Counted from the stretch's first letter, positions 18,124 through 62,802 are shown. The stretch is 64,000 nucleotides of DNA from an uncultured Alistipes sp. (GCF_963931675.1 NZ_OZ007039.1:1771806-1835805), one strand, 5' to 3'. Numbers and translations: made by a program. Notes: a model not told the origin generated them from the sequence alone.

Positions 18124-18318
18124 TAATTGACTTTTGATGTATTGTTTAACCCTTTTCTTGTATTGCAAAGATACAACATAAATCAATTGTATACAAATAT
18201 TTCGCCCTGAAAATTGACATATACAGCAATTATTTTATCAAAAAGGCATATTTAATACACATTCTGCGGCTTTTTTATTAACTTTGTATTTGATGTATAT
18301 GTCAACCAATTGAAAAAG

Positions 18319-18639: not shown

Positions 18640-18651
18640 ATAAGAGGCAAT

Positions 18652-22597: not shown

Positions 22598-22599
22598 AG

Positions 22600-23436: not shown

Positions 23437-23437
23437 T

Positions 23438-24277
23438 ATGGCGGAACTGTATCACTATACAACAACAGCAAGTCTTCTTGGAATGTTAAAGGATTGTTCC
23501 GCAGAGGATCCTTATCTGACTATATGGGCAACACATTGTAATTATTTGAATGACAGAGCGGAGTTTTTACTGGGAGAAGAACTTTGTTGTAAAGCTATAT
23601 GTGAGTATGAGGAAGAACAGTGTATTCCTGAAAATGAACGGGTAAGAAGTATTGTAGAGGACTCTACAATAAAAGAATATAATAAAAAATCTTATGAAGT
23701 AGGATCTGCATTGCCCTCTCGCATCCATGAGGGTTATCCTTATTTATTCTCTCTTTCTCGGGCAAAAGATTCACTCCCCATGTGGGGATTATATGCCAAA
23801 GACGGTAATGGAATAGCTATTGTATTTGATGAGGAAGCACTCCAACAGGAATTTAGAGGGCAGGATTGTATTTATTGTCAAAAAGACAATACCTTACCCA
23901 TAAAAGCAACAATAGCAAAGTTGTATGTTGATAATATTCAGTTAAGCAAAGAGGCTAATCGTCTTACTACTATATTAATATTAAAATTAATATATAAGAA
24001 GGTTAGCTCTTATATCAAACACAAATCATTTGAGTTTGAGCAGGAGTTTAGGGTTGTTGCTACTGAATCTTCCCATATATTATTTAGAGAAAAAGCAGGT
24101 CTAATTGTTCCGTATGTTGAGCAAAAAATACCTGTAAAGTATATCAAGGGTATTATTGTAGGTCCTACGGCTGACTTTGACAGGATGAAAGAGGCTCTCT
24201 CTATCTTCTTAATAAATAAGAATATTAATGTCCGTAAAATAAATATTATTCAATCGGAAGTACCTTATAGGGGATAA
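23438..24277 (+). CDS. DUF2971 domain protein
   Basis: The blocks LYHYTTTASLLGMLKD...NYLNDRAEF, LPMWGLYAKDGNGIAIVF and EQEFRVV match the DUF2971 signature. There is a 1-nt gap to the upstream gene. Confidence 0.6.
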   Translation: MAELYHYTTTASLLGMLKDCSAEDPYLTIWATHCNYLNDRAEFLLGEELCCKAICEYEEEQCIPENERVRSIVEDSTIKEYNKKSYEVGSALPSRIHEGYPYLFSLSRAKDSLPMWGLYAKDGNGIAIVFDEEALQQEFRGQDCIYCQKDNTLPIKATIAKLYVDNIQLSKEANRLTTILILKLIYKKVSSYIKHKSFEFEQEFRVVATESSHILFREKAGLIVPYVEQKIPVKYIKGIIVGPTADFDRMKEALSIFLINKNINVRKINIIQSEVPYRG

Positions 24278-24281
24278 AATT

Positions 24282-27385: not shown

Positions 27386-27478
27386 AATAAAAAGATAACG
27401 TAGTACAAAAATATCTGCCATCAGAAATGGTGGCAGATATTATTTTAGCACAGTTGAGGATTTAGCACAATCTTAATT

Positions 27479-28765
27479 TTACTCTTGTTCTTCCAATGTC
27501 TCCAATTCTCGGGTAGCAAGCGTATCGAACTTAGCCATCTCCTTTGCTTTTGCCTCGTCTGTGATGCGGATGTAGGGTTTCATATCTTCGTATGAATCGT
27601 GCCCTGTCCATGCCATAACAGTTGTTGGTGGAATACCAATGGAAAGGGCAAGGCAGATAAATGTTTTGCGACCCGTATGGCTTGTGATGTATTCATATTT
27701 TGGCTTGGTCTCTTCCTTGCGTGATGCTCCTTCAAAGGAGATTTTGGTTACAGGAGTATCAATCTCACATAGCCTGCCTATTTCCTTCAAACATCTGTTC
27801 AGAACAGCATTGTGAACTCGTGGTAAGACAAACTCTTTGGCAAAAGGATTCTTCTTGTATTTCTTGATAATCTCTTTGCTGTATTTGTTGAGGTCGATTT
27901 TCACAGCATCGCTATCTTTCTGTGTGGTTATCTCAAGGTAGGTGTCGCGAACATCGACTTTCCTTAGTTTCATGACATCTGAGAATCTAAGAGATGTAAA
28001 TGCGGATAAGCAAAACCAGTCTCTATATAAATCAAGGTGTTTTAACTGTTTGGGAAACTTATAATTGTAAACCTTGAGCAACTCATCTCTTTCAAGGTAA
28101 ATGATGGTTCTTTTTGGTAACTTCAATTTTATTTTGAAGCCTGCGCAGTCTTGATGAATAGGGTAGTTGTTGTCTCTGCACCATTTGAAGAACGCTCCAA
28201 TATCCTGCCAACGTTTTGTGAATGTGGTGTTCTGTTTCCAATATTTCTGAAAGAACGCGACCATGGCAGTGAGTTTGGTGTTGGTTAGGTCTTCTATTTT
28301 CAGAGAAGAATCGAATGCTGTCAGTTTTGCCCGAATCGCATTATATTTCTTTTTAGTGTTGGCGCTCCATGTGTTAAGGGTTGCTCGATTTTTGGTAAAC
28401 TCATCAAAGTATGCCAATAGCGTTTTATCCTCATGCTTGACGGTGCCCAACGCTATCTTATATTCATTTTTGAGTTGTCCTTCAGAAGGATATTTGTTAT
28501 CCAAATCATACTTCCTGAATATGGCATTGACCGTGGAAATCTTATTTGCAATGCTGTCGTTTATTTCACGGAAGGTGTATCCTTGTCCGTTGACGGTGTT
28601 GCGCTTTGCTTCATATAGTTTGTCATCCCACTTTGATGCAGCTATGGTTAATCCCGTCTCAAGGTCAACCCTGCATTTGTTGAATGTAACGCGGATGATG
28701 ATGGACTGTTCTCCTGCCTTGTTGATACGGTGGTGCAACCGTGTTTTGATTCTGTAGGTTAGCAT
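27479..28765 (-). CDS. tyrosine site-specific integrase (CTnDOT-type, with N-terminal Arm DNA-binding domain)
   Basis: Arm block QSIIIRVTFNKCRVDLETGLTI. Catalytic blocks HTGRKTF and WTGHDSYEDMKPYIRI (the Tyr nucleophile). It is adjacent to the element's terminal repeat. Confidence 0.85.
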   Translation of the reverse strand: MLTYRIKTRLHHRINKAGEQSIIIRVTFNKCRVDLETGLTIAASKWDDKLYEAKRNTVNGQGYTFREINDSIANKISTVNAIFRKYDLDNKYPSEGQLKNEYKIALGTVKHEDKTLLAYFDEFTKNRATLNTWSANTKKKYNAIRAKLTAFDSSLKIEDLTNTKLTAMVAFFQKYWKQNTTFTKRWQDIGAFFKWCRDNNYPIHQDCAGFKIKLKLPKRTIIYLERDELLKVYNYKFPKQLKHLDLYRDWFCLSAFTSLRFSDVMKLRKVDVRDTYLEITTQKDSDAVKIDLNKYSKEIIKKYKKNPFAKEFVLPRVHNAVLNRCLKEIGRLCEIDTPVTKISFEGASRKEETKPKYEYITSHTGRKTFICLALSIGIPPTTVMAWTGHDSYEDMKPYIRITDEAKAKEMAKFDTLATRELETLEEQE

Positions 28766-43436: not shown

Positions 43437-43578
43437 ATTCTGTTGAGAACTTCCGACCGGATGCAAGGAAATCTCTCTTTGTAGTCTGTGTTTCATGGTG
43501 AATGTTGCTTAAATGGAAGATATTCTTTATATTTGTAAGGAATACTATTTTATTTGTTTTGTGGTATAAATAGCATTT

Positions 43579-43896
43579 ATGAATAATATGATAGCGTTTG
43601 ATGTCTTAAATCCAGGTGAGGTGGCCTTGCGGATTGCGGCGAGAGTCAAAGCTCGGAGATTGGAGCTGGATTTGACGCAGGAGGGTTTGGCAGTGAGAGC
43701 AGGAATCAAGTTCGCAACCTATCGCAGATTTGAGCAGACGGGGGAGATCTCGTTGAAGGGGCTGCTTCAGATAGGCTTTGCCTTGAATGCTCTTTCGGAG
43801 TTCGATGCTCTTTTTGCGCAGAGGCAATATCAATCGCTCGATGATGTCTTGAATGAGCAAAGTGTCATGCGTAAACGGGGTCGGAAAAATGAATAG
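43579..43896 (+). CDS. hipB: HipB-like XRE-family HTH antitoxin
   Basis: HTH block LDLTQEGLAVRAGIKFATYRRFEQ. It overlaps the start of the downstream hipA-like gene. Confidence 0.65.
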   Translation: MNNMIAFDVLNPGEVALRIAARVKARRLELDLTQEGLAVRAGIKFATYRRFEQTGEISLKGLLQIGFALNALSEFDALFAQRQYQSLDDVLNEQSVMRKRGRKNE

Positions 43897-44974
43897 CATC
43901 AAACAAATCGAAGTTCTTCTTGCGGATCGGTTGGTGGGCCGTCTGGCTCTGACCAAGGAGGGGTTGTGTGCATTTGAATATGCTCCCGATTGGCTCGGTT
44001 CGGGTTTCTCCATTTCTCCCTTTGAGTTGCCTTTGCGAAGTGGCGTCTTTATTGCCAAACCGCGTCCGTTTGAGGGAGGATTCGGAGTTTTCGATGATTG
44101 CCTGCCCGATGGGTGGGGACTCCTTATCCTGGATCGCTACCTGCAGCAAAAGGGGATCAATCCTCGCGTGCTTACTCTGTTGGATCGCCTCGCATTGGTT
44201 GGGGTGTCGGGACGTGGGGCCCTGGAGTTTCGTCCGGATCATAGTGTCGTGACGCGACAGGATTATGCCGATTTCGAGAAGTTAGCATTGGAAGCGGAGC
44301 GGATATTGGACAGCGACGAGTATAGTGGAGAAGGTATTGAGGAATTTCAAGACCGTGGTGGTTCTCCGGGTGGCGCACGTCCCAAGATCTTTGCTCGTTA
44401 TGAAGGCAAAGAGTGGCTGGTAAAGTTTCGAGCCAAGAGAGATCCACAGAGTATAGGTGTGGATGAATACCGCTATTCGCTGCTTGCTAAAAAGTGCGGA
44501 ATCGAAATGCCGGAAACTCGACTTTTCGAAGGCAAGTACTTCGGCGTGGAGCGTTTCGACCGAATGCCTCAAGGCAAGTTGCATGTTGTTAGCGTGGCTG
44601 GTCTTATCGGTGCCGATTATCGGTTGCCTAGTATCGACTACAAGCATATTTTTCAGGTGTGCGCCATGTTAACGCATAGTGTAGCCGAGTTGTGGAAAGT
44701 TTATCGACTGATGGTGTTCAATTATCTCATCGGTAACAAGGACGACCACGCTAAGAACTTCGCCTTTATTCATCGGGATGGCGATTGGCATTTTGCTCCG
44801 GCCTATGACCTGTTGCCCAGCGATGGCATTAATGGTTTTCGCACAACCTCAATCAATGACAGTATCGAACCGACGAAAGAGGATCTTTTGGCTGTAGCAG
44901 TAAAGATTGGGTTGAATGAGAAAGAGGCGGTCTATGAGTTTAACAGACTGCGAGAAATACTTCCTACTAAATAA
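43889..44974 (+). CDS. hipA: HipA-family serine/threonine kinase toxin
   Basis: HipA N-terminal block VGRLALTKEG..FEY, GARPKIF, and the catalytic loop DDHAKNFAF. Confidence 0.8.
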   Translation: MNSIKQIEVLLADRLVGRLALTKEGLCAFEYAPDWLGSGFSISPFELPLRSGVFIAKPRPFEGGFGVFDDCLPDGWGLLILDRYLQQKGINPRVLTLLDRLALVGVSGRGALEFRPDHSVVTRQDYADFEKLALEAERILDSDEYSGEGIEEFQDRGGSPGGARPKIFARYEGKEWLVKFRAKRDPQSIGVDEYRYSLLAKKCGIEMPETRLFEGKYFGVERFDRMPQGKLHVVSVAGLIGADYRLPSIDYKHIFQVCAMLTHSVAELWKVYRLMVFNYLIGNKDDHAKNFAFIHRDGDWHFAPAYDLLPSDGINGFRTTSINDSIEPTKEDLLAVAVKIGLNEKEAVYEFNRLREILPTK

Positions 44975-45065
44975 TAAGAATTTAAACTGTGTTAGTGAGT
45001 CGAAAGAAACTCAAGATTGTTAGATTTTTAAGATATGTGCGATTCTTATTTCATTTTTATACACA

Positions 45066-45845
45066 ATGAAAGCTATGTGGCATATACAACGTGAAGAGTT
45101 CAAGAGATTAAAGTCCGGCTCAAGTGCGTTAAATATTCTTTATCAGGAAGGATGTACTTATGTAATGGACAATCATCTTGCGGCAGGATGGTGTTGGTAT
45201 AATACCTTAGATCGTCGTAAAGAATATAATTTTTGTCATATTGATCAGCATGATGATCTCGCTAATGATAAGCATGATATTGTGAAGGACTTATTTGAAG
45301 AAACTCCAATTCCGCTTGAAAGATATATTTCCTTACATTATGAACAGCCTCCTAAAGTTGTGATGCCTCCAGTGAAAGCTATACGATGGGATAATTATAT
45401 ACTTCACATGAAATCAGTGTTTCCTCATTGGTTTATGAAAGAAGTTTATGCATGTCATGATTTTGTTTCAGGCGAAAGTAGCAGTGTTACAAAAACTCAG
45501 CCATACGATCGCTATTATGATTGTGATAACGGATGGCAAGAATATCCAGTTCATCCAATCAATATCAATTGTTATGATTTAAGTCGACTACTGGAAGAGC
45601 AGATTAGTAATAATAAAGGAAGATTATGGATTGTAAATCTGGATGTCGATTATTTTTTTAATAATAAGGTTCAATTATTTACAGAGACGTATATAGAATC
45701 TATATGTACCCAGATTGTTAAAGAGAAAGCTAAAATAGCTGTACTTACTATTGCTCTCAGTCCTGATTGCTGTGGCGGTTGGGAGAATGCCATTAGAGTA
45801 TATAATTATATAGCAGAACGACTTTTTCTTGAAATGCGGTTATAA
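45066..45845 (+). CDS. UPF0489 family protein
   Basis: The blocks YVMDNHLAAGWCWY and CHIDQHDD match my recollection of the UPF0489 signature. The gene is low-GC. Confidence 0.4.
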   Translation: MKAMWHIQREEFKRLKSGSSALNILYQEGCTYVMDNHLAAGWCWYNTLDRRKEYNFCHIDQHDDLANDKHDIVKDLFEETPIPLERYISLHYEQPPKVVMPPVKAIRWDNYILHMKSVFPHWFMKEVYACHDFVSGESSSVTKTQPYDRYYDCDNGWQEYPVHPININCYDLSRLLEEQISNNKGRLWIVNLDVDYFFNNKVQLFTETYIESICTQIVKEKAKIAVLTIALSPDCCGGWENAIRVYNYIAERLFLEMRL

Positions 45846-45932
45846 TGTGGTGGACAATTAATGGTCTTTTCCTCCAAAATAGTTTAGATTTTATTGGGCT
45901 AAATGAAATTTATTGGTTTTGAAAGTCTTATT

Positions 45933-48890
45933 TCATGATTCACGCTCTTTATGATATGGACACAAATCAATAGTTAACTCTTTGAGCTGTTCATCCGAAA
46001 GGTGCATATCTTTCAAAAGGTTCAACAATTCTTCCTGACGTGGCTGTCCCAATGTCATACGATACAATGCAAGTACTTTGATCAGGCGATCGTATTTATA
46101 TCGATCACGGCTGAGAGGGTAAAGCGGAACAATACGTTCAATGTATTCCAATTTAGCCCGTTGTTCTTCTGTTAGTTCTGCGACAGGAAGGCACCAATAA
46201 GGAACGATATCCGAATGCGTACCTTTCAAATCTTTGTAAGCCATAGAGAATAAATCATCCCAAGTATGATACACTGCATTGCCATATAATTTTACCACAT
46301 TTCTGCGTATAGCCAGGCATTTATAGCGGTTAATACGGCCTTCGCGTTGCTCCAAATCAACCGGATTCGAAGGTAAATTCCAGTGAACAATCTTTCTGGC
46401 ATACCAATGAAAATCAAGACCTTCCTGTCCAATCGAAGTGGTAGAAAGCAAGAATGGCCGGAAGGGAGAGTTGAATGCCTTACGGATATTGCTGGTACGT
46501 GCGACTGATTTGTCTGTGACTGTTTTATCAATGAACGGAATTGCAAAATGGCAACGCATAAGTTGCTTTTTCTTATCCGTACCCAAAGAATCGGTTGTGT
46601 CTATACTAAGATTGCTCGTACCGATAATGGCATCCGAGATAACATGTCCGAGTTCCTTTTTTTGTGCCATGTGTGCATATTCATCGAGAACAGCTTGCAG
46701 GTTGCCTATCACACAGTAATCAAGTACAGATTCGTAATAATCATCATCATTTTTCTTGTTGTACATCAGATCTATCACAACTGCACTTTCGGGCTTGTTG
46801 AACACTGAGACGATTGCTTTGGCTACCATCTTGGCATCTTCTTCATTGCCTGATTGTCGATAGGCACATACTGCAGGTGAGGCTATAGCGATATCTGTCA
46901 TCACATCCAATGCATTCGAAGGTACATACAAGCCAATCAAGTCTTCTACTGGTTCGTCATCCAGTATTCTCATGAGGGAAAGAATAAGTTGGGCGTTGTT
47001 TCGTCCTTGTTGTGGAAGGGTATGTATGAGCGTATTCTGGGCAAATTTTTCTTGAATTCGCTGTTTTATGATTCTCCGGATTGAAGAAAGTTTTTCTCCA
47101 TAGAATTCCGCAGGAGAGAAAAGACTCGCTAAAGTTCGGCAAGGGTACTCTAATAGCCCACCTGTTCTTAAACGGCCTTCACCGTAACGATTCTTCTTTT
47201 TTGAAGCATAGCCTATCTTCGGCTCGGTTAACTCTCCAAAAGTATATAAATCAGAATAATATGACATCATTATGGAAATCATTCTCGGCACCATTTCCCA
47301 TGATGAGAACAGGATAACTTTAGAGAAACTGCGAGCCTCGTTACTCTCAAATACACCTTCGGCCGTATAGTAAGGATTGGACGCGGGAACCCAAAGCAGC
47401 AGATGTGTTTTCTTTTCATGGCGAACTCCAAATACCAAGTCGTGAAGATACTTTAATTTGCCACTGGCAAAAGGAATTGAACGATATTTGTTGATTGCAT
47501 CTCTTGAGAGGAGTAATGCTTTCATTTTACCGGGTTTCTTTACCTCTAAATGATGCAATGCTGAAACTATTTGCTTCTTCAGTTCATACTTGTCCATAAA
47601 GGACAGTAAATAAGGCGAAGATTTGACATACTCCATGGGAAGATTACCCAAGTGTATTTTTTTATTTTCATGGCTTAGACAATCCATAAGATGCTGGCAT
47701 TCTGCAAACGAAAGAATATCTTCCGGCAAGACCTGTACATCGCATACTTGAGAATCGTTTATAATGCCACTATTAAATCGTTCCGTGCGGCACATCACTC
47801 CATATAGAGCTTCTTCCGCCTCGTTTTTGGCGGAGACGAGAGGTGTCAGATCAACTACATCAGTACGCTTCAGTGCGGCAGAATATGTATGCCATATCAA
47901 CTTAAATCGGTCGGTTTTATCTTTTGTGGCATATAGAAAGTCCATTACTTTCATAAAGTCCTGATAGTGCTCGTCATTTCCATCCGTATTCAACTCTTCA
48001 AGGGTAGAATATGGCTTGTAGGGCGTAGCGGAAAGCAACAGAATCTTGGTATTGGATCGCTTGTTATCGAAAAATTTGTTGGCCAGCATGGATTGCTCAT
48101 CATCACTTTGTTCGAGCAGAGAGTTGAAGCGTTGGAACTCATCCATGATAACCAGATCCGGATCGAGCATGTCTATACTGATCCCGGCAAAAATACGACG
48201 CAGTTTGTTAATCAGATCTGCTCGTTGCCGATTGTCGCAACCATTCTGAGCATATTCAATCAGTTGATTGATAATCGTATCTGACAGGCTTGTCTGCAAC
48301 TTGCCATACATCTCGCAAAGATAGTCTTTGCCACATTCTTTGATTTTACCGTTATAGATGATAGTAAGTTCATGCCAGTTTTTTACATTGCAACTAAGAA
48401 GATTGCTGATGACTTTTTTATGATCTTTAAATTGAGGGAGCCCGCATAATAAATCATACATCAAGGCCCGTTCATTGGCTGTTCCTTGTGCACTGTAAAA
48501 ACGGAAGGAGGTTGATGGTGTCAGTGGAATGATCGATTCTGGCATTTCCCCTTTCTCGCGTTGTTCTGCAATCCTTTTTTCTGTCAGTTTGATATAAAGA
48601 TGCTGCATTGACAGACGGCTCTCACTGATACTCATCCGATTGTCAACTCCCAATTTCTCAATGTTCTGGTCGGCTATATTAGCATTAGAACAAATATAGA
48701 CAACCTTAAAGAAATCATCTTGTTCCTGCTTGTGCCATTCTCGAATCAAATTAATAACTTGTTTGGCCACATACGTCTTACCTAATCCTACCTCATCGGC
48801 AAGTAATACCCGACGGTGCCCTAAGTTTTTATAGATATGTAGAATGCGCTCTGCTGTGGCACATTGAAAATCTTTGATTTCCTGGCTCAT
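45933..48890 (-). CDS. SNF2-family (SF2) helicase, 985 aa
   Basis: Motif I LLADEVGLGKT, II VIMDEFQRF, III LLLSATPY. C-terminal motifs V/VI STTSIGQEGLDFH and LEQREGRINR. Confidence 0.8.
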   Translation of the reverse strand: MSQEIKDFQCATAERILHIYKNLGHRRVLLADEVGLGKTYVAKQVINLIREWHKQEQDDFFKVVYICSNANIADQNIEKLGVDNRMSISESRLSMQHLYIKLTEKRIAEQREKGEMPESIIPLTPSTSFRFYSAQGTANERALMYDLLCGLPQFKDHKKVISNLLSCNVKNWHELTIIYNGKIKECGKDYLCEMYGKLQTSLSDTIINQLIEYAQNGCDNRQRADLINKLRRIFAGISIDMLDPDLVIMDEFQRFNSLLEQSDDEQSMLANKFFDNKRSNTKILLLSATPYKPYSTLEELNTDGNDEHYQDFMKVMDFLYATKDKTDRFKLIWHTYSAALKRTDVVDLTPLVSAKNEAEEALYGVMCRTERFNSGIINDSQVCDVQVLPEDILSFAECQHLMDCLSHENKKIHLGNLPMEYVKSSPYLLSFMDKYELKKQIVSALHHLEVKKPGKMKALLLSRDAINKYRSIPFASGKLKYLHDLVFGVRHEKKTHLLLWVPASNPYYTAEGVFESNEARSFSKVILFSSWEMVPRMISIMMSYYSDLYTFGELTEPKIGYASKKKNRYGEGRLRTGGLLEYPCRTLASLFSPAEFYGEKLSSIRRIIKQRIQEKFAQNTLIHTLPQQGRNNAQLILSLMRILDDEPVEDLIGLYVPSNALDVMTDIAIASPAVCAYRQSGNEEDAKMVAKAIVSVFNKPESAVVIDLMYNKKNDDDYYESVLDYCVIGNLQAVLDEYAHMAQKKELGHVISDAIIGTSNLSIDTTDSLGTDKKKQLMRCHFAIPFIDKTVTDKSVARTSNIRKAFNSPFRPFLLSTTSIGQEGLDFHWYARKIVHWNLPSNPVDLEQREGRINRYKCLAIRRNVVKLYGNAVYHTWDDLFSMAYKDLKGTHSDIVPYWCLPVAELTEEQRAKLEYIERIVPLYPLSRDRYKYDRLIKVLALYRMTLGQPRQEELLNLLKDMHLSDEQLKELTIDLCPYHKERES

Positions 48891-50671
48891 AAGCGTTTGA
48901 TTCTTTTAAGAACATTTTCAAATGTGCTGTACATCTCCACGAAATGGTCTGGAATAACAGACTCGTCCGCTTTTTCTACGATTTGTCGGATAGATGCGAT
49001 GCGGTCTGGATCTTTATATGCCATTTTTACCATGTCTTCATATAGAGAGGTGCTGATTTGCTGTTCCAAAGCAGAAGTTTTGTCATCGGCCAACTCTTTA
49101 TCCAACTGTTGACTTTCCAATATATACTGTTCCACATCTTCTGTCAGCATGAAAGCCAGATAGTTGATGAACTTCCCTTTTGTATTGATGAAAGAACGGA
49201 ATATGGCTTTGTCACGCTCGTCGGTTGGCATTCCTTCCGTCTTTATCTTTATCACTCGGTGTAAATCTCCAGTTCGTATTGAGTAAAACTCTGTCAGTGA
49301 ATCCAGTGGTATGTCTTCAAATATCAGATCGTCAGTCAACTCTTGTTCTTTGCCATTACATCCTAAAGGATAAAGGAAAACAGATTCCGAAGGGAGCTTG
49401 TTTGGCAGGCATTGGATTGTAATGGTATAGCTGCCGTTATTTGATCTGATTTGTGCCTTTTGAATCGCTGCAATCGCACGACGCAATATCAGTTCGTCGG
49501 TGACATTCTTTTTACCACCGTCTTCCTTAGGTACCGAAATAACCTGCTCGAACATGCACTCTTTACTGTCGTTAATCAGTTCACTCCGGTATTTTTCATA
49601 CGAGGTCTTATATGGGGCAAACTTCAGGTGCAGTAAAAATTCCACATTCCGTCCGAATCCGTTCATGGTAGCATTGGTAGAACCGAGATACAAATGGTTA
49701 TAGTAAAGACGGTCTTCATGTCTTCGTATGAAATAAACTTTCTCGTGCAAATCGACAGCTACATCTTTTTCTACTTTATCGGTCAGTACCTCCTTGGGTG
49801 TGTACACTCCGTCATTAAACAAATTTATGATCTCTTGTGTAACAGAAGCATGTCTTGTGATGAGTGTCTTTCTGGCTCCGTGGCTGCAACTGACCATCTG
49901 ATTCAGGATATGTGTGTCTACGAATGGAGAGATAACCAGCATCTCTGTTGCATGCTTCAACATACTCTGTTCAAGGCATTCTGCATGTCCATCATATCCA
50001 GGTATTCCCATGGGGAAAAACTCGTAATCTTCAAAGGGCGAATCCGTAAGATCAAATTGTTCGATGCAGTTAATGTCTATGCAGAGCGAACGCATATTTT
50101 TTCGGATAGTACAGTTATCGGTTTTTCCGATCAACCATGTGAGAAAGTCCACAAGCGGTTTATGTTTACTTTGGGCTTTTTGAGTAGCTTGTTTCGTGCT
50201 GATCTTTCCGGAAAGTTCACATACTACGTCCAGGTCGTTAGAACTGGTTAGGTTGCGTGAAAGGACAATCAATTTGATTTGCTGCGTACCTGTATCCGGG
50301 TTTGTTTCTTTGATTATCCATACTTTGGGATGAAAATTGATGAAGTTTCCGCCTTTCGCATGGAGTGTTACCTGCACAACGCTTTGCTCAAGAAGTGAAT
50401 ACACTTTGGAGTTGGCCTGCGGTATTGCAATACATCCGGCGTTACAAAAAACTGCAAATTTACCTGCCGATTGATTGATAGTCTCCAGAATCAAGTGGGG
50501 AGAACGCATGGTTGCCTCCGTCAAATCTGTCATCGTACCCAGCATAAATGGTACCGACAATAAGGAAGGCATGTCCAGACTATAGGTCGTGCATACGGCA
50601 TAATCAACCACAAAGCCGTCACTTTGCAATACATCCGTATAGACAATATCATTCCATAATGCTTCAGCCAT
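48887..50671 (-). CDS. phospholipase D-like (HKD) nuclease family protein with a ~250-aa extra C-terminal domain
   Basis: Two HKD-type motifs, LHAKGGNFINFHPKVWII and HEKVYFIRR...LYLGSTNATMNG. The stop overlaps the helicase start (ATGA). Confidence 0.65.
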   Translation of the reverse strand: MAEALWNDIVYTDVLQSDGFVVDYAVCTTYSLDMPSLLSVPFMLGTMTDLTEATMRSPHLILETINQSAGKFAVFCNAGCIAIPQANSKVYSLLEQSVVQVTLHAKGGNFINFHPKVWIIKETNPDTGTQQIKLIVLSRNLTSSNDLDVVCELSGKISTKQATQKAQSKHKPLVDFLTWLIGKTDNCTIRKNMRSLCIDINCIEQFDLTDSPFEDYEFFPMGIPGYDGHAECLEQSMLKHATEMLVISPFVDTHILNQMVSCSHGARKTLITRHASVTQEIINLFNDGVYTPKEVLTDKVEKDVAVDLHEKVYFIRRHEDRLYYNHLYLGSTNATMNGFGRNVEFLLHLKFAPYKTSYEKYRSELINDSKECMFEQVISVPKEDGGKKNVTDELILRRAIAAIQKAQIRSNNGSYTITIQCLPNKLPSESVFLYPLGCNGKEQELTDDLIFEDIPLDSLTEFYSIRTGDLHRVIKIKTEGMPTDERDKAIFRSFINTKGKFINYLAFMLTEDVEQYILESQQLDKELADDKTSALEQQISTSLYEDMVKMAYKDPDRIASIRQIVEKADESVIPDHFVEMYSTFENVLKRIKRL

Positions 50672-51842
50672 TGATAGCCTCCTTTCTTAATTCGTCAACA
50701 AAGATTTTCACCGTATCCCATCGGTACGTGAGTTTATAGTAATGTATGCGGGCTTTCTTGTCGTAAACGTATGCAGGATTTCCAATTTTCCTGCGATTCC
50801 CTTTTACATTTCGTTCTCGGCTGATAATCAGTTGGTCCAGACCTCCATCTTCTTCAATATCATTGGCAGCAAGGTGTTCCGCAACTTTTTCGCAGAACCT
50901 TTTCCCGCTATCCTCCCGTATGTTTACGGCATTCAATACCTTGTCTATATCGGTCCCACTTTTCCGGTATTCTTCAAGTTTCTCCTGAAATTCAACTCGC
51001 ATCTCTTCATCCTGGTATTGCGAATAGATATAGTTATAGCGAATGTGCACCATATATATAAAATCTGCAAAGCGTCGGGCAAGGTCTTGCAATTCTCCAA
51101 TCTCCTGTGGCAATTGGCGGTATGGGATCTGTTCAAATCTATCGGTTATCGCAAAGTCTGGATTATCTACGATGTAACGTAATAATGTACCTTGACATGC
51201 TTTTGCATTTAGTATGTGACCCACAATGAAGTCTTTGTCCTCTACGGTCAGGTCTAAGGAGCATTTTTGAGTAAAATCATAATCCACATTCGGGAAAGAA
51301 CAAAACTGGAACAGGCCTAACCTGTCATCAGCATCGTTATTGGTATCTTCGTCATCCGTCCTGACTGCCGTTGGGGCGTTGTGTAGTGCATTGGATGTTG
51401 AGTAAATAAGTTCATACAATTGCGGACTGCGCAAGATTCCAAAAGTGAGCAATCCTGTATTGTAGATGTATGCAGGATCGTATTTAACGTAGTTGTTCCC
51501 GGGTTTATTAATAACTTCGCTTCCTATAATTCCTCGTGTGTCCGTACTGCCTTCACAAAGATTCTTTGTCATGATGCGCTCCAGCCGTATAATTTCCGTT
51601 TTCACCTCTGAAATCCGGTTATATCGTTTTTCAGTAGCCTTGCGGTAGAGTTGAGGCATGAGCGAGAAATATTTAATGTGCTTCTGCAGGGTGGATATTC
51701 CGGGGAACATCCGGTCTGAAAAAGCGTCACGAATACGGCCAATGCCGAGTTCGTCGAGGGCTACAGATTCCGAGGTCATTTTCAGCACCTGCATGACCCG
51801 GGTTTGTTCTTCCCTGTTGCTATGTATATATCCTAATTTCAT
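50664..51842 (-). CDS. hypothetical protein (392 aa), first gene of the PLD-helicase operon
   Basis: Overlaps the PLD gene start by 8 nt. Low-GC. No recognisable motif. Confidence 0.5.
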   Translation of the reverse strand: MKLGYIHSNREEQTRVMQVLKMTSESVALDELGIGRIRDAFSDRMFPGISTLQKHIKYFSLMPQLYRKATEKRYNRISEVKTEIIRLERIMTKNLCEGSTDTRGIIGSEVINKPGNNYVKYDPAYIYNTGLLTFGILRSPQLYELIYSTSNALHNAPTAVRTDDEDTNNDADDRLGLFQFCSFPNVDYDFTQKCSLDLTVEDKDFIVGHILNAKACQGTLLRYIVDNPDFAITDRFEQIPYRQLPQEIGELQDLARRFADFIYMVHIRYNYIYSQYQDEEMRVEFQEKLEEYRKSGTDIDKVLNAVNIREDSGKRFCEKVAEHLAANDIEEDGGLDQLIISRERNVKGNRRKIGNPAYVYDKKARIHYYKLTYRWDTVKIFVDELRKEAING

Positions 51843-51978
51843 GAAAGAGGAGGTCGTGAGTTTTTATTGTTTCTTAGTGCTTGGTTTTGTATTGTAAGTC
51901 TGATCCTGGTAGGGTGTAGGTTTATAGGATTTTTCTGCGATAACTTTCTTGAGCGGATGGGCAAGTAGATAACTTCTG

Positions 51979-54723
51979 TTAATTGCGTTTCAATAGCGAT
52001 TGAATCTTGGACTCTTCGTCGGTCCCCGTGGTCGAGAGGCGCAGCAGCGGTAGGCCGTAGCGGTCGAGGATGCGATCCTTCATCCGGTCGCGTTCGGATT
52101 GGCGGGTTCCTTGTTTGTGGAACTGGTAGCCGTCGGTCTCGACAGCCAGGACGGGGCGTTTGCTTACCCGGTTATAGATCAGGAAGTCGAGGTGCGTGGC
52201 GCCGTTCGAGATATAGCGGCGCTCCTCGTCGTCGAGAAGCGTCCAGTCGCGGATCAACTGTCGCAGCGGTTGATGGCAGAGGACGCTCAGATGCCGGAAT
52301 GCCGGGTCCGCCTCCAACACACGCTCCAGCAGGGCATAGGTCAGATTCTCGGAGTCGAACTCCGAGATCCGTCGGTGCCGTTTGAGGAACTCCCGCCGCG
52401 CCTCGGCATAGGGTTCGTAGAGCAGGTCGAAAACCGAATGGATGGCGCTCTCCGTGATCTTGCCGCCGTTGTAGTCGATGTAGGCCAGCAGGTCGGCGAT
52501 GTTGCGGCTGTCGGGCTGCTCGTTGCTCGAAGTGACGAGCGTAAATTGCCTCTTGGCCCGTGATACGGCAACGTTCAGCAGATTGGGATCATCCGTGAAG
52601 GCGGTAATCTGATCGTCGACGGTCGACAGGATGATGGCCTCCTTTTCCCGTCCCTGGAACTTGTGGACTGTGGCCACGTCAACACCTCCGCCCAGTTCGC
52701 GGTGGAGCGCATTGACCTGCTCGTTGTAGGGGGAGATAATGCCGATTTCGGCCTGCTCGCAGGGGAGTGACGGCAGCACCTCGCGCCGGATCGTCTCGAT
52801 CTCGCGGGGGTTGAACGCTCCCCGCGCGTGATGACCCGGTGTGGTCCGCCACGCCGTGATGACGTCGGGTTCGCCGCGATCCTCGGTCATGATCAGCAGG
52901 CGCCCGCCGTAGAAACGCTGGTTGCAGAAGTTGATGATCTTCGGGTGGCAGCGGTAGTGTTCGCGCAGCAGCGTCTGCGGCGCTTCGGGAAAGACCCGGC
53001 AGACGGACTCCAGAAAGCTCAACGCGGCGCAGTCGTAGCGGGGGTCAATTACGTGTTTGGCGCCGATGGCCTGCATGCGGAGCCGGTCGGCATCCGTGAT
53101 GACATTGGGCAGTTGCATCGAGTCGCCGACAATCACCGCATTGCGGGCGCACATCAGCGCCAGTGCCCCTGTTTCGGATGATACCTGCGAGGCTTCGTCC
53201 ATGATCACGTAGTCGAACAGCGTCTCCGCCCGGAAATTCGACCGCGAGGAGAAGGTCGTGCTCAACACGACGGGGTACTCCTTGAGCAGCTCGGGGATGA
53301 TGTGCTGGAAAATCGGTCGTTTGTGTCCCTTGCCATAGCGGGCGGCCAGCCGGCTGCGCAGGTAGCGCATCGAGTCGTCGCTTAGCCGGGCCACCATCGC
53401 CGGAGCATCCGACGTGGCAAGTTGCTTTTCAATCCGGTCGATCTCCGCCGTGAGCTCCTCCTGCCGAACCTGGTAGTAACTGCGCTGGAGGAGGGGGATT
53501 AACCGCTGGAGATCCTGCCGCTCCGGGTGGCGGGGAAATCCGTCGAAGAGGCGGCGGATCCGGCGTTTGAGCAAAAACCATCGGACAGCCTCTCGCCATC
53601 GGTCGAAGAGCCCGTTCGGCTGCCACTCGACAGCGGCCTGCAATTCGTTCCACAGCATCAGCAGACGGGCCGATGGCATCTGCCGACGAAGCGTGACGGA
53701 GGAATCAATCGTTGTCTCCTGCTCGAAATGGAGTTGCTCGGTTTGGAGTCCCGACAACTCCTGCCGGGCACGAGCCAGCCGCTCCTGTCGTTCGAAAACC
53801 GTTTGTAACGATTCTGCCTCGGACTGGATGGTGCGGAGAAACTCCGGAGAGTCGGTTTCGACCGAATACCACGAGTCGATCTCGGCCGGAATGGACTTCT
53901 CGATGGCCTGTGTTTCGACGAAGGCCGTCTTTCGCTCACGGCTGCCCAGCAGGGCGGTGAGAAATCCCAGCCCCTGCTTCTCCAGCTTCTCGACCACGTT
54001 TTCGATGGCCGAGTTGTTGTTCGAGACGACCAGCACGGTCTTCTCCTGCACCACAAGATTGGCCACGATGTTGAGGATCGTCTGCGTCTTGCCGGTTCCC
54101 GGAGGGCCCTGGATAATGCTGATCTGATTCCCGAAGGCTGCCTGGATGGCTCTCTGCTGGCTGGCGTTGCACCCGAAGGGGTAGATGAGCGGCGCCGCCG
54201 GGAATTGCCGGGGCGAGTCCTTGCCGGGATTCAGGTAGAGGGCTGCCGCCGAACGGTCGGAGACGAAGTCGATTTTCTGGTACTGCATCATCAGCAGTTT
54301 CTGCCCGTCGTCGGTTTTCAGAGGATTGAGTTCCGCCACGTCGCGCAGATAGGCGAAGCGATCCTGTGCGGGCGGCTCCTCCAAGCACGACCGAACCAGT
54401 TCAACCTCCGTTCCCTTGTAGTGGGCTCCGGTGCCGTTGGCGTATTCCACATACCAGAATCGCCGCGCACCTTGTTGGAAGGCGGCGATGTAGGAGAGCG
54501 GCTCTATCCGGCGGCCTTTGTGGAGCAGATGGCAATGTTGCGGATCGAATACCACGGGATCCTTCAGCCACAACACTTTGCTCGGGACATAGGAGTAGGT
54601 CTTCGGGAAATGGCAGAAATTGACTTGGCAGCGGTTGGGCCTTGAGGTGTACCAACAGCGTTCGACGGAGTCGGTTTTATCCTCTCCGTCGATGATAATC
54701 CGGTTTTCCCGAGGGTCGTACAT
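51979..54723 (-). CDS. SF1 (Upf1/DNA2-like, AAA_11/AAA_12) helicase fused to a C-terminal DUF2726 PD-(D/E)xK nuclease-like domain
   Basis: Walker A IQGPPGTGKTQT, Walker B VIMDEASQ, VGDSMQLPNV, FQGREKEAIILS. C-terminal LAVETDGYQFH...GLPLLRL is DUF2726-like. The gene is high-GC, unlike the adjacent island. Confidence 0.75.
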   Translation of the reverse strand: MYDPRENRIIIDGEDKTDSVERCWYTSRPNRCQVNFCHFPKTYSYVPSKVLWLKDPVVFDPQHCHLLHKGRRIEPLSYIAAFQQGARRFWYVEYANGTGAHYKGTEVELVRSCLEEPPAQDRFAYLRDVAELNPLKTDDGQKLLMMQYQKIDFVSDRSAAALYLNPGKDSPRQFPAAPLIYPFGCNASQQRAIQAAFGNQISIIQGPPGTGKTQTILNIVANLVVQEKTVLVVSNNNSAIENVVEKLEKQGLGFLTALLGSRERKTAFVETQAIEKSIPAEIDSWYSVETDSPEFLRTIQSEAESLQTVFERQERLARARQELSGLQTEQLHFEQETTIDSSVTLRRQMPSARLLMLWNELQAAVEWQPNGLFDRWREAVRWFLLKRRIRRLFDGFPRHPERQDLQRLIPLLQRSYYQVRQEELTAEIDRIEKQLATSDAPAMVARLSDDSMRYLRSRLAARYGKGHKRPIFQHIIPELLKEYPVVLSTTFSSRSNFRAETLFDYVIMDEASQVSSETGALALMCARNAVIVGDSMQLPNVITDADRLRMQAIGAKHVIDPRYDCAALSFLESVCRVFPEAPQTLLREHYRCHPKIINFCNQRFYGGRLLIMTEDRGEPDVITAWRTTPGHHARGAFNPREIETIRREVLPSLPCEQAEIGIISPYNEQVNALHRELGGGVDVATVHKFQGREKEAIILSTVDDQITAFTDDPNLLNVAVSRAKRQFTLVTSSNEQPDSRNIADLLAYIDYNGGKITESAIHSVFDLLYEPYAEARREFLKRHRRISEFDSENLTYALLERVLEADPAFRHLSVLCHQPLRQLIRDWTLLDDEERRYISNGATHLDFLIYNRVSKRPVLAVETDGYQFHKQGTRQSERDRMKDRILDRYGLPLLRLSTTGTDEESKIQSLLKRN

Positions 54724-56107: not shown

Positions 56108-57382
56108 TCAGAAGAAAACCATATTCGGCCGGATCTCTTCGATCATCTTTTGCGGAACGTCGCATTCCCGGGCGATCTCCGGCCACATGGATGCCGCCTG
56201 GCAAACCTCGTCGATAATCCGTGCAGCATTCTTGATGTTGTTCTTGGCCGCGCATTCGAGCAGGTCGTCTTTGGTGATGCCGCTGAATTTGCCGTTTATC
56301 GACATCTGGTGGGCCGAGGTCCACTGGCCGTCGGGATTGTAGGCGTAGCCCATGTCGTAGGCCGGAGAAAGGTGCCATTTCCCGCCTCTGTCCATCAGGA
56401 AAGAGATGTTCTTCGTGTGATCGTCTTGATTGCGCACAACGACATTGAACACCATTCTGCGGAACATCTCCTGCGCCTCCTTGTAGGTGAGCCGCAGTCC
56501 GCGCATCACGGCGAACGCCTGTTCGTAGGAGTAGGCCCTGAGGAGCCGGTAATCGAAGTGCGCGATGCCGCAAAGCGTCTGCATGTGCACCTTTGCACCG
56601 TTTATCCGGTCGAACCGCTTTGTCAGGAAGTGGGCCCTCCCGTTCTCTTCGATCAGCGAGCATTCCGCCATGTCGATGCCGCACTCCCTCACAAGTCGTG
56701 AAAAGGAGTATTCCAGACGCCCGAAGTTCTCCGTCTCCCTGAATCCGGCCGTGGCGGATACGCCGTCCAGCTTGATGATGTAGTAGTCGAACCCGTCGGG
56801 AGCCTCGACCTGTCCCGAACGGATCTCTCCGGTGGCTTTGTTGTAGGCAATGATTGCCTTGGCGCGTTGCCCGCCGGCTGAGGTGCCGAGACGCAGAATT
56901 TCCGCGATGGCCGCCTTCTTGTCGGAACTGATGTTCACGTTGAAACTTGATTTGTCGGCAAGGGCTTCTCTGGCTACATCCACCAGAGAATCGACCTCTA
57001 TCCGGATATCCGTATCGACTGCGTCGATGGCCGGTTCAAACTCAAGGGCACCCATGCAGCGTTTGCCAAGAAAGCAAAGCGTCTCGATCGCATTGCCGCT
57101 GGTCCGGCCCGTCAGGGCCAGCCACTTCTCAAAAAGGGCACGGCCGTATGTATCCGGCAGGGAATCCGCCAGCATTCCGGGCAGGCCTTTGAAGGTCGTT
57201 TTGTCAAGTTCCCCGAAACTGTACACGCGGCCTTCCCTTACAGGCATCATCAGCGGCGAAGGTTCTATGCCCTGTCGCACAAAGTCCGGATCGTACTCGA
57301 ACTGTGCGATTTCATATCTTTGGTCCCAACGTACCGAGCCTATGGGCTGGCCGTATAGATTGACACGAGCTACGTCTACCAT
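56108..57382 (-). CDS. hipA: HipA-family kinase toxin (long form)
   Basis: The block GTSAGGQRAKA and the catalytic loop QDDHTKNISF. It overlaps the upstream HTH gene. Confidence 0.8.
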   Translation of the reverse strand: MVDVARVNLYGQPIGSVRWDQRYEIAQFEYDPDFVRQGIEPSPLMMPVREGRVYSFGELDKTTFKGLPGMLADSLPDTYGRALFEKWLALTGRTSGNAIETLCFLGKRCMGALEFEPAIDAVDTDIRIEVDSLVDVAREALADKSSFNVNISSDKKAAIAEILRLGTSAGGQRAKAIIAYNKATGEIRSGQVEAPDGFDYYIIKLDGVSATAGFRETENFGRLEYSFSRLVRECGIDMAECSLIEENGRAHFLTKRFDRINGAKVHMQTLCGIAHFDYRLLRAYSYEQAFAVMRGLRLTYKEAQEMFRRMVFNVVVRNQDDHTKNISFLMDRGGKWHLSPAYDMGYAYNPDGQWTSAHQMSINGKFSGITKDDLLECAAKNNIKNAARIIDEVCQAASMWPEIARECDVPQKMIEEIRPNMVFF

Positions 57383-57726
57383 TCCGATTCCTCCTTATTC
57401 TCTTTTGTGTAACCTTTGGATGCTCGCTTGCGCTTGGGCTTGTTTGCTTTGCTGGCCAACTCGTAGTATTCGTTCGGGCTCAACTGCTCCTCCTCGACGA
57501 GCGGGACGAAGATGTCGAGCTTGCCAAGGGTGCGCAGGACACGGATCAGCGACTCGAAGTTCTTTACCTCCCCGTCCTCCATGCGCTTTATGGTGGAGAT
57601 GGAGACACCGCTCTTGTCTGCCAGTTCGGCCTGCGACATATTCTGCTTCAGACGTACCGTTTTTATTTTGGCTGCAATCCTGTTGCAAAGTTCGGTGTCT
57701 GTTAGTATGTATATGTTGTCCAACAT
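57376..57726 (-). CDS. hipB: HipB-like XRE-family HTH antitoxin
   Basis: HTH block MSQAELADKSGVSISTIKRMEDG. It overlaps the hipA start. Confidence 0.65.
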   Translation of the reverse strand: MLDNIYILTDTELCNRIAAKIKTVRLKQNMSQAELADKSGVSISTIKRMEDGEVKNFESLIRVLRTLGKLDIFVPLVEEEQLSPNEYYELASKANKPKRKRASKGYTKENKEESEW

Positions 57727-58097: not shown

Positions 58098-58334
58098 ATG
58101 TTAGATGTTGAATATAAATATTATCTAGAGCATCAACAGGAATTGCTGAAATTGTATAAAGGACGTTTCATTGTTATTGTCGGGAATTCCGTCGTCGGCA
58201 ATTATGCTACTCATGTTGAGGCATATTTGGATTCTATTAATAAGTATGATCTTGGCTCATTTCTTATTCAGGAATGTACTGATGGTAATTCTGGATATAC
58301 TCAAACTTATCATTCACGTGTTATTTTTGCGTAA
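58098..58334 (+). CDS. small protein (79 aa) translationally coupled to the downstream aspartic protease gene
   Basis: TAATG stop/start overlap at 58332-58336. The start is chosen at MLDVEY. Confidence 0.4.
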
Positions 58335-58897
58335 TGTCAGCACTTCCTTTAGCAAAAGCATTCACTCAGCGATATGAGGGCATCACAAATGTCTTGAAAA
58401 CAGAATGCACGGTATATTCAGCGTTTGATCCTAGAACACCTGTTAAACCGGAGGGCTGTAAGGTGCTTTGTTTGTGGGATACTGGTGCTACTAATTCAGC
58501 TATTTCTGCTAGATTGGTGCAAACTCTAAACTTGAAACCGAGTGGGAAGGCTACAGTCTCTCATGCACAAGGTCAAACTGATGTAAATACTTACATGATT
58601 AATCTCGTGCTTCCTAATAATGTCGGTGTGGCGTTTTTGCCAGTTAGTGAAGGTATTTTATCTGGGTTTGACATATTGATAGGGATGGATATTATTTCTC
58701 GAGGTGACTTTTCATTATCTTGCTCAAATGGGAAAACAGTATTCTCTTTCCAAACGCCATCAACACATGAGGTTGATTATGTGACAGGTAAAATGATTCG
58801 ATCTCCAATGATAAAATCAGATAAGGAACCAGGCAGGAATTCTCCATGCCCTTGTGGAAGTGGAAAGAAGTATAAGCATTGTTGCGGGAAGCACTAA
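58334..58897 (+). CDS. retropepsin-like (clan AA) aspartic protease with a C-terminal SEC-C zinc-binding motif
   Basis: Active-site block [14 protein letters not shown] (D-T-G-A) and GMDIISRG. The C-terminal tail [16 protein letters not shown] is a SEC-C motif. Confidence 0.6.
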
Positions 58898-58903: not shown

Positions 58904-59470
58904 ATGAATAGAGATGATATACTGACACTCAAGGCGGTAATTCTATATATTCTGAAGAATTGTTCCGCTCATGTGAGTCGCAATGTTTATTACATTGTGA
59001 AAACTGCTTTTGTGGCGCAACAAAAGCATTTGGCAAAATATCTTTGTCCTCTTTTTGAGGACAAGATTATTGCTTTGCAATTTGGGCCAGTTCCCTCAAA
59101 TATATACGACGTTTTGAAAATTGCGCGAGGAGATTCGAATGCTATGTATTTTCATCGGAACGATGATCTTTGTTTAGTATATGATTCAATATCATTCTGT
59201 GATGAAGTTTTTACAGCAAACGAGGATCCTGACATGAATTATTTGTCTACATCTGCGGTAGAATGCATTGATGAAGCTTTACGTGAGGTGTCGGAAATGA
59301 CATTTGATCAGATTGTACGAACAACGCATGGAGAGGAGTGGACTCGCGCGTTCAATAATCCAAATTGCAAAGAAATGAGCTATCTTGCAATTGCCAAAGA
59401 AGGAGGAGCAAACGATTCTTCAATATCCTATTTGAAAGAAAATCTAGAACTTGATAGTTCGCTCAAATGA
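58904..59470 (+). CDS. Panacea (DUF4065, SocA-like) domain antitoxin
   Basis: LKAVILYILKNC...IVKTAFVAQQKHLAKYLCPLFEDKIIALQFGPVPSNIYD matches the Panacea-domain signature. Confidence 0.55.
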   Translation: MNRDDILTLKAVILYILKNCSAHVSRNVYYIVKTAFVAQQKHLAKYLCPLFEDKIIALQFGPVPSNIYDVLKIARGDSNAMYFHRNDDLCLVYDSISFCDEVFTANEDPDMNYLSTSAVECIDEALREVSEMTFDQIVRTTHGEEWTRAFNNPNCKEMSYLAIAKEGGANDSSISYLKENLELDSSLK

Positions 59471-61884: not shown

Positions 61885-62802
61885 ATGAGTTGCAATCATA
61901 AATTGATTGATATAAATATGAAGCCGGAAGAGATTCAAAATAGGATAATAAATGGAAGATGCGAAGAGGTATTAAAAAATCTTGATGATGATAGTATTGA
62001 TTTTATTCTAACATCTCCACCATACGCTGATAAAAGAAATTACGCTATTGAAAATACTTCTTCGTCTCCTGCAGAATATCTTGATTGGTTTAAACCAATG
62101 GCAAAAGAGATCTATCGTGTTTTAAAGAACGATGGAAGTTTTGTTTTGAATATTAGTGACAAGGTAGTAAATGGCGTCCAGCAAATATATGTTTTTGAAT
62201 TGGTCGTATACCTTTGCAAAGAACTCCATTTTCATTTAGTACGCGATTATATTTGGTATAATCCGGCAACTCCGCCTAATATTTATTCTACGGGGAAATA
62301 TGGAAGAACAAAAAAATCTCATGAATATTGTTTTTGGTTTAGTAAATCAGAGAAGTGGACTTTCAATATGGAGCCGATTCGGAAACCTTATAGCAAGGAT
62401 ATGCAGAAGTTCCTCGACGGTAAAGGGAAAGGGGGTAGAACTGAGAATACTCGCCCCAGTACCCATAATTTTAATTGTGGAATAAAATGGAAAAATAACG
62501 GGGGATCTGATCCTGGAAGTGTGATTTCTATTGGCAATACGAATAGTAATGATTTATTCTTTAAACTTTGCAAAGAAAGAGGAGTGAGCCACCCGGCAAG
62601 ATTCCCAGAAAAGCTAGCGGAATTCTTTATTTTGGCAGGGACCAATGAAGGCGATATCGTTCTTGATCCTTTCTCTGGTTCGGGAACAACATGTTTAGTT
62701 GCGAAACTCCATCATAGACGTTGGATTGGAATAGATGCTAATAATGATTATTGCGAACTCGCAACATTAAGAATTGAGCGTGAGGGGGATGAAAAGGAAT
62801 AA
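61885..62802 (+). CDS. beta-class DNA amino-methyltransferase (N4/N6 MTase, PF01555-type)
   Basis: Motif IV ILTSPPYADKRNY precedes motif I VLDPFSGSGTT; this permuted order is beta-class. Confidence 0.8.
   Translation: MSCNHKLIDINMKPEEIQNRIINGRCEEVLKNLDDDSIDFILTSPPYADKRNYAIENTSSSPAEYLDWFKPMAKEIYRVLKNDGSFVLNISDKVVNGVQQIYVFELVVYLCKELHFHLVRDYIWYNPATPPNIYSTGKYGRTKKSHEYCFWFSKSEKWTFNMEPIRKPYSKDMQKFLDGKGKGGRTENTRPSTHNFNCGIKWKNNGGSDPGSVISIGNTNSNDLFFKLCKERGVSHPARFPEKLAEFFILAGTNEGDIVLDPFSGSGTTCLVAKLHHRRWIGIDANNDYCELATLRIEREGDEKE

Follow-up and report, generated by a model that had tools for sequence, protein, structure and literature searches.

A probable complete copy of the Azaca (zacABC) defence system carried as a three-gene module by an uncultured Alistipes

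Azaca, credited to Millman et al. 2022 by a 2023 review, is a defence system composed of a DUF6361 protein, a phospholipase D (PLD) family nuclease and a superfamily 2 (SF2) helicase (bioRxiv 10.1101/2025.07.10.664194), and the Hachiman paper counts its helicase, ZacC, among the defence helicases. Azaca from Bacillus (BmAzaca) and KpAzaca protect against T4, with Azaca protection exceeding 10^6-fold; the BmAzaca proteins form a complex, T4 DNA is cleaved only when ZacA, ZacB and ZacC are present together, and a nuclease (PLD) active-site mutant and a ZacC Walker A mutant are both inactive (bioRxiv 10.1101/2025.07.10.664194). Here, we show the family membership, motif integrity, conservation as a module and hotspot cargo status of a three-gene locus at 45933-51842 in a 64,000-nucleotide stretch of DNA from an uncultured Alistipes sp. 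(GCF_963931675.1 NZ_OZ007039.1:1771806-1835805; the whole stretch is called the window below). Judged from sequence comparison, this locus is very probably the Azaca system in complete and intact form (zacA-zacB-zacC), a discrete module of three genes gained by horizontal transfer.

Similar enzymatic parts occur in other described systems. DISARM, which comprises DrmA, DrmB (DUF1998), DrmC and a methyltransferase together with DrmD or DrmE, also has a PLD nuclease (DrmC) and an SNF2-like helicase (DrmD), whereas Azaca has neither DrmA, DrmB nor a methyltransferase, and nothing in DISARM corresponds to ZacA. Mokosh (type I, MkoA and MkoB; type II, MkoC) likewise pairs a PLD nuclease with a helicase, but the Mokosh helicase belongs to superfamily 1 (SF1) and ZacC to SF2. 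SauUSI resembles Azaca in combining a PLD-family nuclease with an SF2 ATPase, in lacking a cognate methyltransferase, in its ATP-dependent cleavage and in its proposed modified-cytosine cue. It is, however, one polypeptide chain that brings a target-recognition domain of its own and dimerises to complete the PLD site, and it has no ZacA-like subunit, whereas Azaca is split over three proteins and ZacB holds two half-sites per chain plus a C-terminal region of ~240 amino acids (aa). The likeness to SauUSI is a match at the level of motifs only.

The three genes of the locus lie on the minus strand: zacA (50664-51842), the first gene of the operon, encodes a DUF6361 protein of 392 aa, zacB (48887-50671) a PLD-family nuclease of 594 aa, and zacC (45933-48890) a predicted SF2 helicase/translocase of 985 aa. 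zacA and zacB overlap by 8 nucleotides (nt; 50664-50671) and zacB and zacC by 4 nt (48887-48890), exactly as described in an earlier model-generated reading of the same DNA (the original prediction), which had already taken them for an operon. Each protein matches its PADLOC model over nearly the full length of both: ZacA with E 7.8e-81 (residues 3-387, model positions 5-392 of 396), ZacB with E 1.2e-126 (residues 3-590, model positions 3-583 of 586) and ZacC with E 1.5e-269 (residues 2-980, model positions 10-1018 of 1019). For none of the three does PADLOC-DB hold a competing full-length model, all other matches being local. Pfam places DUF6361 in ZacA (50.7 bits, cut-off 25, E 1.8e-13), so that the lead protein, thought to have no recognisable motif, has both a Pfam and a PADLOC family. 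PLDc_2 scores 25.2 bits in the window ZacB, just under the cut-off of 27, and matches 18 of 20 diverse ZacB family members. In ZacC, Pfam detects ResIII, DEAD and Helicase_C and no SNF2 domain; the proposed "SNF2-family" label thus finds little support, the matches to DrmD, DpdE and RapA spanning only ~50 residues around helicase motifs V-VI.

All features of Azaca membership that sequence can test are present, namely a DUF6361 ZacA, a PLD ZacB, the ZacC helicase and the gene order. Like known Azaca, the locus has the three proteins in order with full-length PADLOC matches, intact PLD and Walker A/B motifs and no methyltransferase; it differs in its host, a gut Bacteroidales bacterium rather than a Bacillus or an enterobacterium, and in having an SF1 helicase-DUF2726 gene directly upstream. 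The expectation of a defence system built on a PLD nuclease and a helicase was borne out by the ZacB and ZacC matches, with the helicase assigned to SF2. The original prediction had suggested a PADLOC search and had named membership of another known system as the outcome that would overturn it; this search places the genes in Azaca, complete within the triad itself. The locus belongs to an already described system and is neither novel nor DISARM.

The three genes have base compositions close to one another (guanine-cytosine (GC) content 0.431 for zacA, 0.419 for zacB and 0.411 for zacC), and their ratios of nonsynonymous to synonymous substitution (dN/dS) against the Phocaeicola acetigenes copy are 0.076, 0.097 and 0.066, which from sequence comparison indicates strong purifying selection on all three. 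These low values, together with hundreds of homologues (634 for ZacA at E<=1e-5 and 560 for ZacB), argue that they are real genes. Upstream of zacA on the minus strand lies an AT-rich spacer of 136 nt (51843-51978, GC 0.397), the presumed operon promoter region. This spacer shares no homologous DNA with other Azaca loci, where homology starts at 51846. A scan for sigma-70 promoters and terminators returned counts not above those of shuffled sequence and is uninformative, because Bacteroidales promoters are not of the sigma-70 type.

The catalytic motifs of ZacB and ZacC are intact, as checked on the translations of the window. In ZacB, the first PLD half-site, FHPKVW...LSRNL...D, occupies residues 113-148 (50228-50335, minus strand), with F113, H114, P115, K116, W118, S138, N140, L141 and D148 at least 95% conserved among ~70 ZacB proteins from several phyla. 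The second, HEK...LGSTNAT...NVE, occupies residues 309-344 (49640-49747, minus strand) and follows the pattern H309-x-K311 ... G330-S331-x-N333-A-T335 ... N342-x-E344, in which H309, K311, G330, S331, N333, N342 and E344 are invariant in a 20-sequence ZacB alignment. A single ZacB chain thus holds two HxK...SxN half-sites. Searching the PDB with a profile of 20 diverse ZacB members matched the second half-site to the PLD nucleases 7clg_A, BfiI (2c1l), NucT (6ehi) and R.NgoAVII (4rct). The best match, 7clg_A (E 1.5e-4), is deposited as "Putative helicase" and was taken as the PLD domain of SauUSI, whose structural paper is the top match for that code. Single-sequence searches of the PDB returned nothing significant for ZacA or ZacB, and for ZacC only a borderline RapA match of ~40 residues.

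The region of ~240 aa that follows the PLD core of ZacB had been singled out as an extra C-terminal domain. It is covered by the ZacB model and belongs to the normal architecture of the family, as both the full-length match and the stable protein sizes across loci show. In ZacC, the Walker A motif GLGKT (residues 35-39; 48774-48788) has G35, L36, G37 and K38 at least 95% conserved among 60 ZacC sequences, as are D250, E251, F252 and Q253 of the Walker B or motif II sequence DEFQ (residues 250-253; 48132-48143), S287, A288, T289 and P290 of motif III, SATP (residues 287-290; 48021-48032), and Q848, R849, E850, G851, R852 and R855 of helicase motif VI, QREGRINR (residues 848-855; 46326-46349), all on the minus strand.

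Comparative genomics, which had been proposed as a check on whether the triad is conserved as a unit, gave a clear answer. A scan of one genome per GTDB species yielded 316 stretches with a relative of ZacA, and in tblastn comparisons of 79 species loci every one of the ~70 that were long enough carried, on the same strand, ZacB and then ZacC directly downstream of ZacA, with ZacA identity falling to as little as 25% among loci that keep the triad. The genes abut or overlap, and the proteins keep to narrow size ranges of 387-411 aa for ZacA, 575-641 aa for ZacB and 970-1127 aa for ZacC. Triads occur in Bacteroidota, Bacillota, Pseudomonadota (Marinobacter, Alcanivorax), Actinomycetota (Micromonospora), Planctomycetota and Verrucomicrobiota. 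They are also found on an unverified "Bacteriophage sp." fecal contig and on IncFIB plasmids of Cronobacter sakazakii, where the Prokaryotic Genome Annotation Pipeline labels the products DUF6361 family protein, phospholipase D family protein and helicase-related protein.

When the 1,126 open reading frames (ORFs) flanking 69 of these loci were clustered, no universal partner gene emerged, since no neighbour cluster occurred in more than 9 of the 69, and neither a methyltransferase, a DUF1998 (DrmB) protein nor DrmA recurred near them. The UPF0489 gene and hipBA, which adjoin the triad in the window, were considered as parts of the system and rejected; they accompany it only in the near-identical loci L001-L007 and in none elsewhere.

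The same survey produced several observations on individual loci. Within one Bacteroidales clade of Azaca, zacC ends in a ~7-nt overlap with a WYL-WCX regulator gene, and a HIRAN-domain gene comes next (9 loci each; downstream of zacC in L032, L033, L035 and L067, also L034, L037-L040 and L062). The two genes may extend the operon in this lineage with a regulatory or accessory function. Azaca is present in 21 Cronobacter plasmid records, and on the C. sakazakii plasmid pGW2 (L091) it lies at 6921-14177, directly downstream of a tyrosine recombinase gene, an arrangement that suggests another mobility route. Phocaeicola coprocola DSM 17136 (L073, 2078-2263) retains the first 62 codons of zacA, at 95% identity to the window and without zacB or zacC, an apparent Azaca remnant. 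Finally, an 8-kb contig from a metagenome-assembled genome (MAG) labelled "Phascolarctobacterium sp." (L007, QAMT01000009.1) is 97.9% identical to window positions 44610-52689, including the 3' end of the Alistipes-type SF1-DUF2726 gene, and is probably a mis-binned Alistipes contig rather than a transfer to a Firmicute.

How did the module reach this genome? DNA homology of ~83% links the window to Azaca loci of Prevotella, Bacteroides mediterraneensis, B. ilei, Phocaeicola and another Alistipes MAG, and it is restricted to 51846-45940, which is exactly the three ORFs; because the homology is so confined, Azaca appears to move as a precise cassette. Within the window the cassette sits in the variable cargo slot of a defence hotspot (43454-51991), together with hipB/hipA (43579-44974) and a UPF0489 gene (45066-45845), both of which Pfam confirms as predicted. 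Contigs of the Alistipes shahii type (L086-L090) match the window at 55387-51992 (93.8% nt identity), a stretch that covers a flavin reductase gene and the SF1-DUF2726 gene, diverge from it 13 nt before the SF1 stop codon, and match again at 43453-43293 (92.6%). Between these points they carry instead T5orf172 and Wadjet-like genes (DUF7281, DUF3584, MksE; 12735-20015 in L086). The slot is therefore read as variable hotspot cargo, since homology breaks at one end and resumes at the other with different genes between, and it is bordered by the flavin reductase/SF1-DUF2726 pair and by a stretch of 160 bp near a PTPS gene, both conserved. The earlier view of horizontally acquired low-GC DNA holds.

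The picture of a low-GC island between high-GC flanks needs amending on one side. Next to zacA the step is sharp, coinciding exactly with the stop codon of the SF1-DUF2726 gene (GC 0.605). The far border is blurred, with hipBA at ~0.49 (hipB 0.484, hipA 0.495), values of 0.41-0.51 from 39 to 45 kb and a return to ~0.6 only below 39 kb. The UPF0489 gene is lower still (0.344), and these differences in GC suggest that the three parts of the slot accumulated separately.

The wider setting contains further genes of defence and toxin-antitoxin type. Beyond the flavin reductase gene, the A. shahii-type contigs carry type III restriction-modification-like genes, Shedu (SduA), Abi_C and GmrSD, and the window has a second hipBA there, with hipA and its helix-turn-helix partner at 56108-57726 on the minus strand. 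This is followed by a SEC-C/aspartyl-protease-like ORF (58334-58897), a SocA_Panacea-domain ORF (58904-59470) and an orphan N6_N4 DNA methyltransferase (61885-62802). A second low-GC island (12965-28765, GC 0.35-0.45) adjoins a tRNA-Glu gene (12965-13037). There, an insertion sequence with an rve transposase (19219-20358) lies directly upstream of an MmeI-family methyltransferase/target-recognition-domain ORF (20420-22597) that begins in its "helicase spacer" domain, so that it appears to lack the nuclease N-terminus. Next come an AbiJ_NTD4 protein, a pair made up of a DEAD-box helicase and T5orf172 (24282-27385), and a tyrosine integrase (27479-28765).

Could the locus nonetheless be an incomplete or degenerate DISARM, reduced to DrmC and DrmD, or a Mokosh-like system with the neighbouring SF1 helicase as MkoA? 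A PLD nuclease and an SF2 helicase are indeed the building blocks of DrmC and DrmD, ZacC has local matches to DrmD, DrmA and DpdE (E 1e-11 to 1e-4), and the SF1 protein matches MkoA and MkoC over the helicase core. However, the matches to DrmD, DrmA, DpdE and BrxH span only ~50 residues at motifs V-VI of ZacC (for DrmD, residues ~800-860, E 1e-10 and weaker), the NCBIfam model DISARM_DrmD reaches 45.8 bits where the cut-off is 610, and at E<=0.1 ZacB matches the ZacB model alone in PADLOC and neither DrmC nor MkoB. Among the ORFs from 37.5 to 62.8 kb there is no DUF1998 protein and no full-length DrmA, as the original prediction had noted, and its observation that a methyltransferase is missing also holds, both within 10 kb and, as a recurring neighbour, across the 69 loci. 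The nearest methyltransferase genes, the N6_N4_Mtase gene at 61885-62802 and the MmeI-type gene at 20420-22597, belong to other modules at distances of ~10 kb and ~25 kb. The SF1 protein matches MkoA through residues 187-734 at model positions 618-1077 of 1112 only, that is, through the helicase core; it lacks the N-terminal part of MkoA and carries a DUF2726 PD-(D/E)XK domain rather than a PLD domain. DISARM fails on DrmA, DrmB, DrmC, DrmD and the methyltransferase, and Mokosh on MkoA, MkoB and MkoC. With all three proteins matching ZacABC in full length, the DISARM or Mokosh reading is refuted, and we consider it extremely improbable.

A closer contender is a four-component variant, with a unit of 45933-54723, in which the SF1-DUF2726 protein would be an accessory subunit or synergistic partner of ZacABC. 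This gene (51979-54723, minus strand, 914 aa; Pfam AAA_11, AAA_12 and DUF2726, a PD-(D/E)XK domain) is not part of core Azaca, yet such genes abut Azaca in three arrangements. The SF1 TGA overlaps the zacA ATG (ATGA) in Phocaeicola acetigenes (L028, SF1 gene at 7287-10001) and in an Alloprevotella MAG (L015, 1274-3997), at SF1 identities of 41-42%, and an SF1-DUF2726 gene likewise lies upstream of zacA in L012 and L014; it lies downstream of zacC in L051 (9076-11760) and L052 (16355-19084); and in the window it is on the same strand, 136 nt upstream. In a metagenome scan with the SF1 protein of L028, zacA was directly downstream in 23 of the 63 loci with enough downstream DNA; this was so for 21 of 30 copies with an identity to the L028 gene above 90% and for 2 of 30 copies at 70-80% identity. 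Against a shared unit stands the base composition of the window gene, 60.5% GC compared with 42% for Azaca, and the fact that in the sister contigs the same gene precedes the Wadjet-like genes. About 90% of Azaca loci have no SF1-DUF2726 gene, the SF1-DUF2726 family counts more than 4,700 members that mostly occur without Azaca, and a 54% identical homologue (P0352) adjoins a HEPN gene instead. SF1 copies that are nearly identical and share their upstream surroundings differ in whether Azaca is present, the copies without it having at least five different downstream contexts, and other neighbours, such as WYL-WCX, HIRAN and a type I R-like/Schlafen protein, are about as frequent. In addition, BmAzaca is active in vitro with three proteins (bioRxiv 10.1101/2025.07.10.664194). 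Taken together, a four-component unit at this locus is very unlikely. The window SF1-DUF2726 protein shares 96% identity with a protein of Alistipes shahii, which makes Alistipes the probable host; the gene is resident in Alistipes, forms the left border of the cargo slot and has an origin separate from Azaca, because it is GC-rich, resident and present without Azaca in sister strains. Its earlier treatment as an independent locus, and not as a Mokosh MkoA partner, was correct as far as origin in this genome is concerned, in view of its residence, its GC of 0.605 and an MkoA match limited to the core. Azaca is best read as a cargo, present in some cases and absent in others, that sits at the 3' end of SF1-DUF2726 genes in mosaic defence islands. 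That Azaca and SF1-DUF2726 join in gut Bacteroidales into a helicase-nuclease defence module not described before, either with four components or by synergy, seems to us quite unlikely; in a weaker version, the 3' end of SF1-DUF2726 genes could be a specific docking site for defence cargo.

What would the window copy of Azaca do? Given their 8- and 4-nt overlaps, the three genes would be expressed from one operon, and by homology with BmAzaca their products would assemble into a complex. ZacC would be an SF2 ATPase (GLGKT, DEFQ, SATP, QREGRxxR) that binds DNA and probably translocates along it driven by ATP. The two ZacB half-sites would join within one chain, as a putative pseudo-dimer, to form one PLD site that cuts DNA via a phospho-histidine intermediate. 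ZacA, apparently an all-helical and required third subunit without a recognisable fold relative, would probably be a scaffold or sensor. The complex would degrade phage DNA without any host methylation; with no methyltransferase, the host is not protected by marking of the restriction-modification type, and self and non-self would most likely be told apart by recognition of a feature of phage DNA, for which hypermodified, glucosyl-hydroxymethylcytosine (glucosyl-hmC) T4 DNA has been suggested in the case of BmAzaca. Phage resistance and three-protein, ATPase-dependent DNA cleavage by the window copy are thus predictions by analogy; that the proteins form a complex, that none of the three, nor the PLD site or the ATPase, can be spared, and that T4 DNA is preferred are literature findings carried over on presumed orthologous function.

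Several points weigh against this account of an intact Azaca and its mode of action. Membership was assigned from hidden Markov model matches. ZacB does not keep the canonical Asp of HxK(x4)D, the window protein having K121 and R316 instead, and the single-chain, two-lobed active site is deduced from motifs while the AlphaFold2 model of ZacB is poor (predicted local distance difference test 60.7, predicted template modelling score 0.36; input of 15 close homologues at >=66% identity); a Foldseek search of the PDB with this poor model returned nothing at E<=0.001. Conserved ZacA residues proved dispensable in vitro when mutated, and glucosyl-hmC as the cue is a suggestion of the authors only (bioRxiv 10.1101/2025.07.10.664194). 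No modified-base reader domain was recognised in ZacA.

Some of these points feed a further alternative, in which Azaca senses another cue, such as replication intermediates, free DNA ends, DNA damage (as with Hachiman HamB) or a phage protein trigger, and this would set the PLD nuclease loose on DNA of any kind, with abortive infection as a possible consequence. The lack of a reader domain in ZacA and its fold without a known relative are in keeping with this, as are the BmAzaca cut sites, which are highly degenerate (5' A^NT) and spread throughout T4 DNA (bioRxiv 10.1101/2025.07.10.664194), and the precedent of Hachiman, a helicase-nuclease pair that senses genome integrity (PMC12278908, PMC10925250). 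However, purified BmAzaca clearly prefers T4 double-stranded DNA to the other DNAs tried, with no phage protein present (bioRxiv 10.1101/2025.07.10.664194), which argues for a DNA-intrinsic cue. We regard sensing of another cue as possible, if somewhat unlikely, and favour recognition of a feature of the phage DNA itself by the three-protein Azaca complex.

In conclusion, standard PADLOC defence annotation would label this locus Azaca automatically, and as a discovery it matters little; mildly new leads are confined to the SF1-DUF2726 coupling and the exchange of Azaca and Wadjet-like cargo. Azaca is paired with SF1-DUF2726 genes recurrently, at times with translational coupling, and this offers a lead towards components with an accessory or synergistic role. 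The slot itself provides a clean natural example of a cargo swap, with Azaca, hipBA and UPF0489 on one side and Wadjet-like genes on the other at a single hotspot. In addition, the locus documents what is very probably an intact Azaca system in a probable Alistipes, moved among Bacteroidales genera as a three-ORF module.

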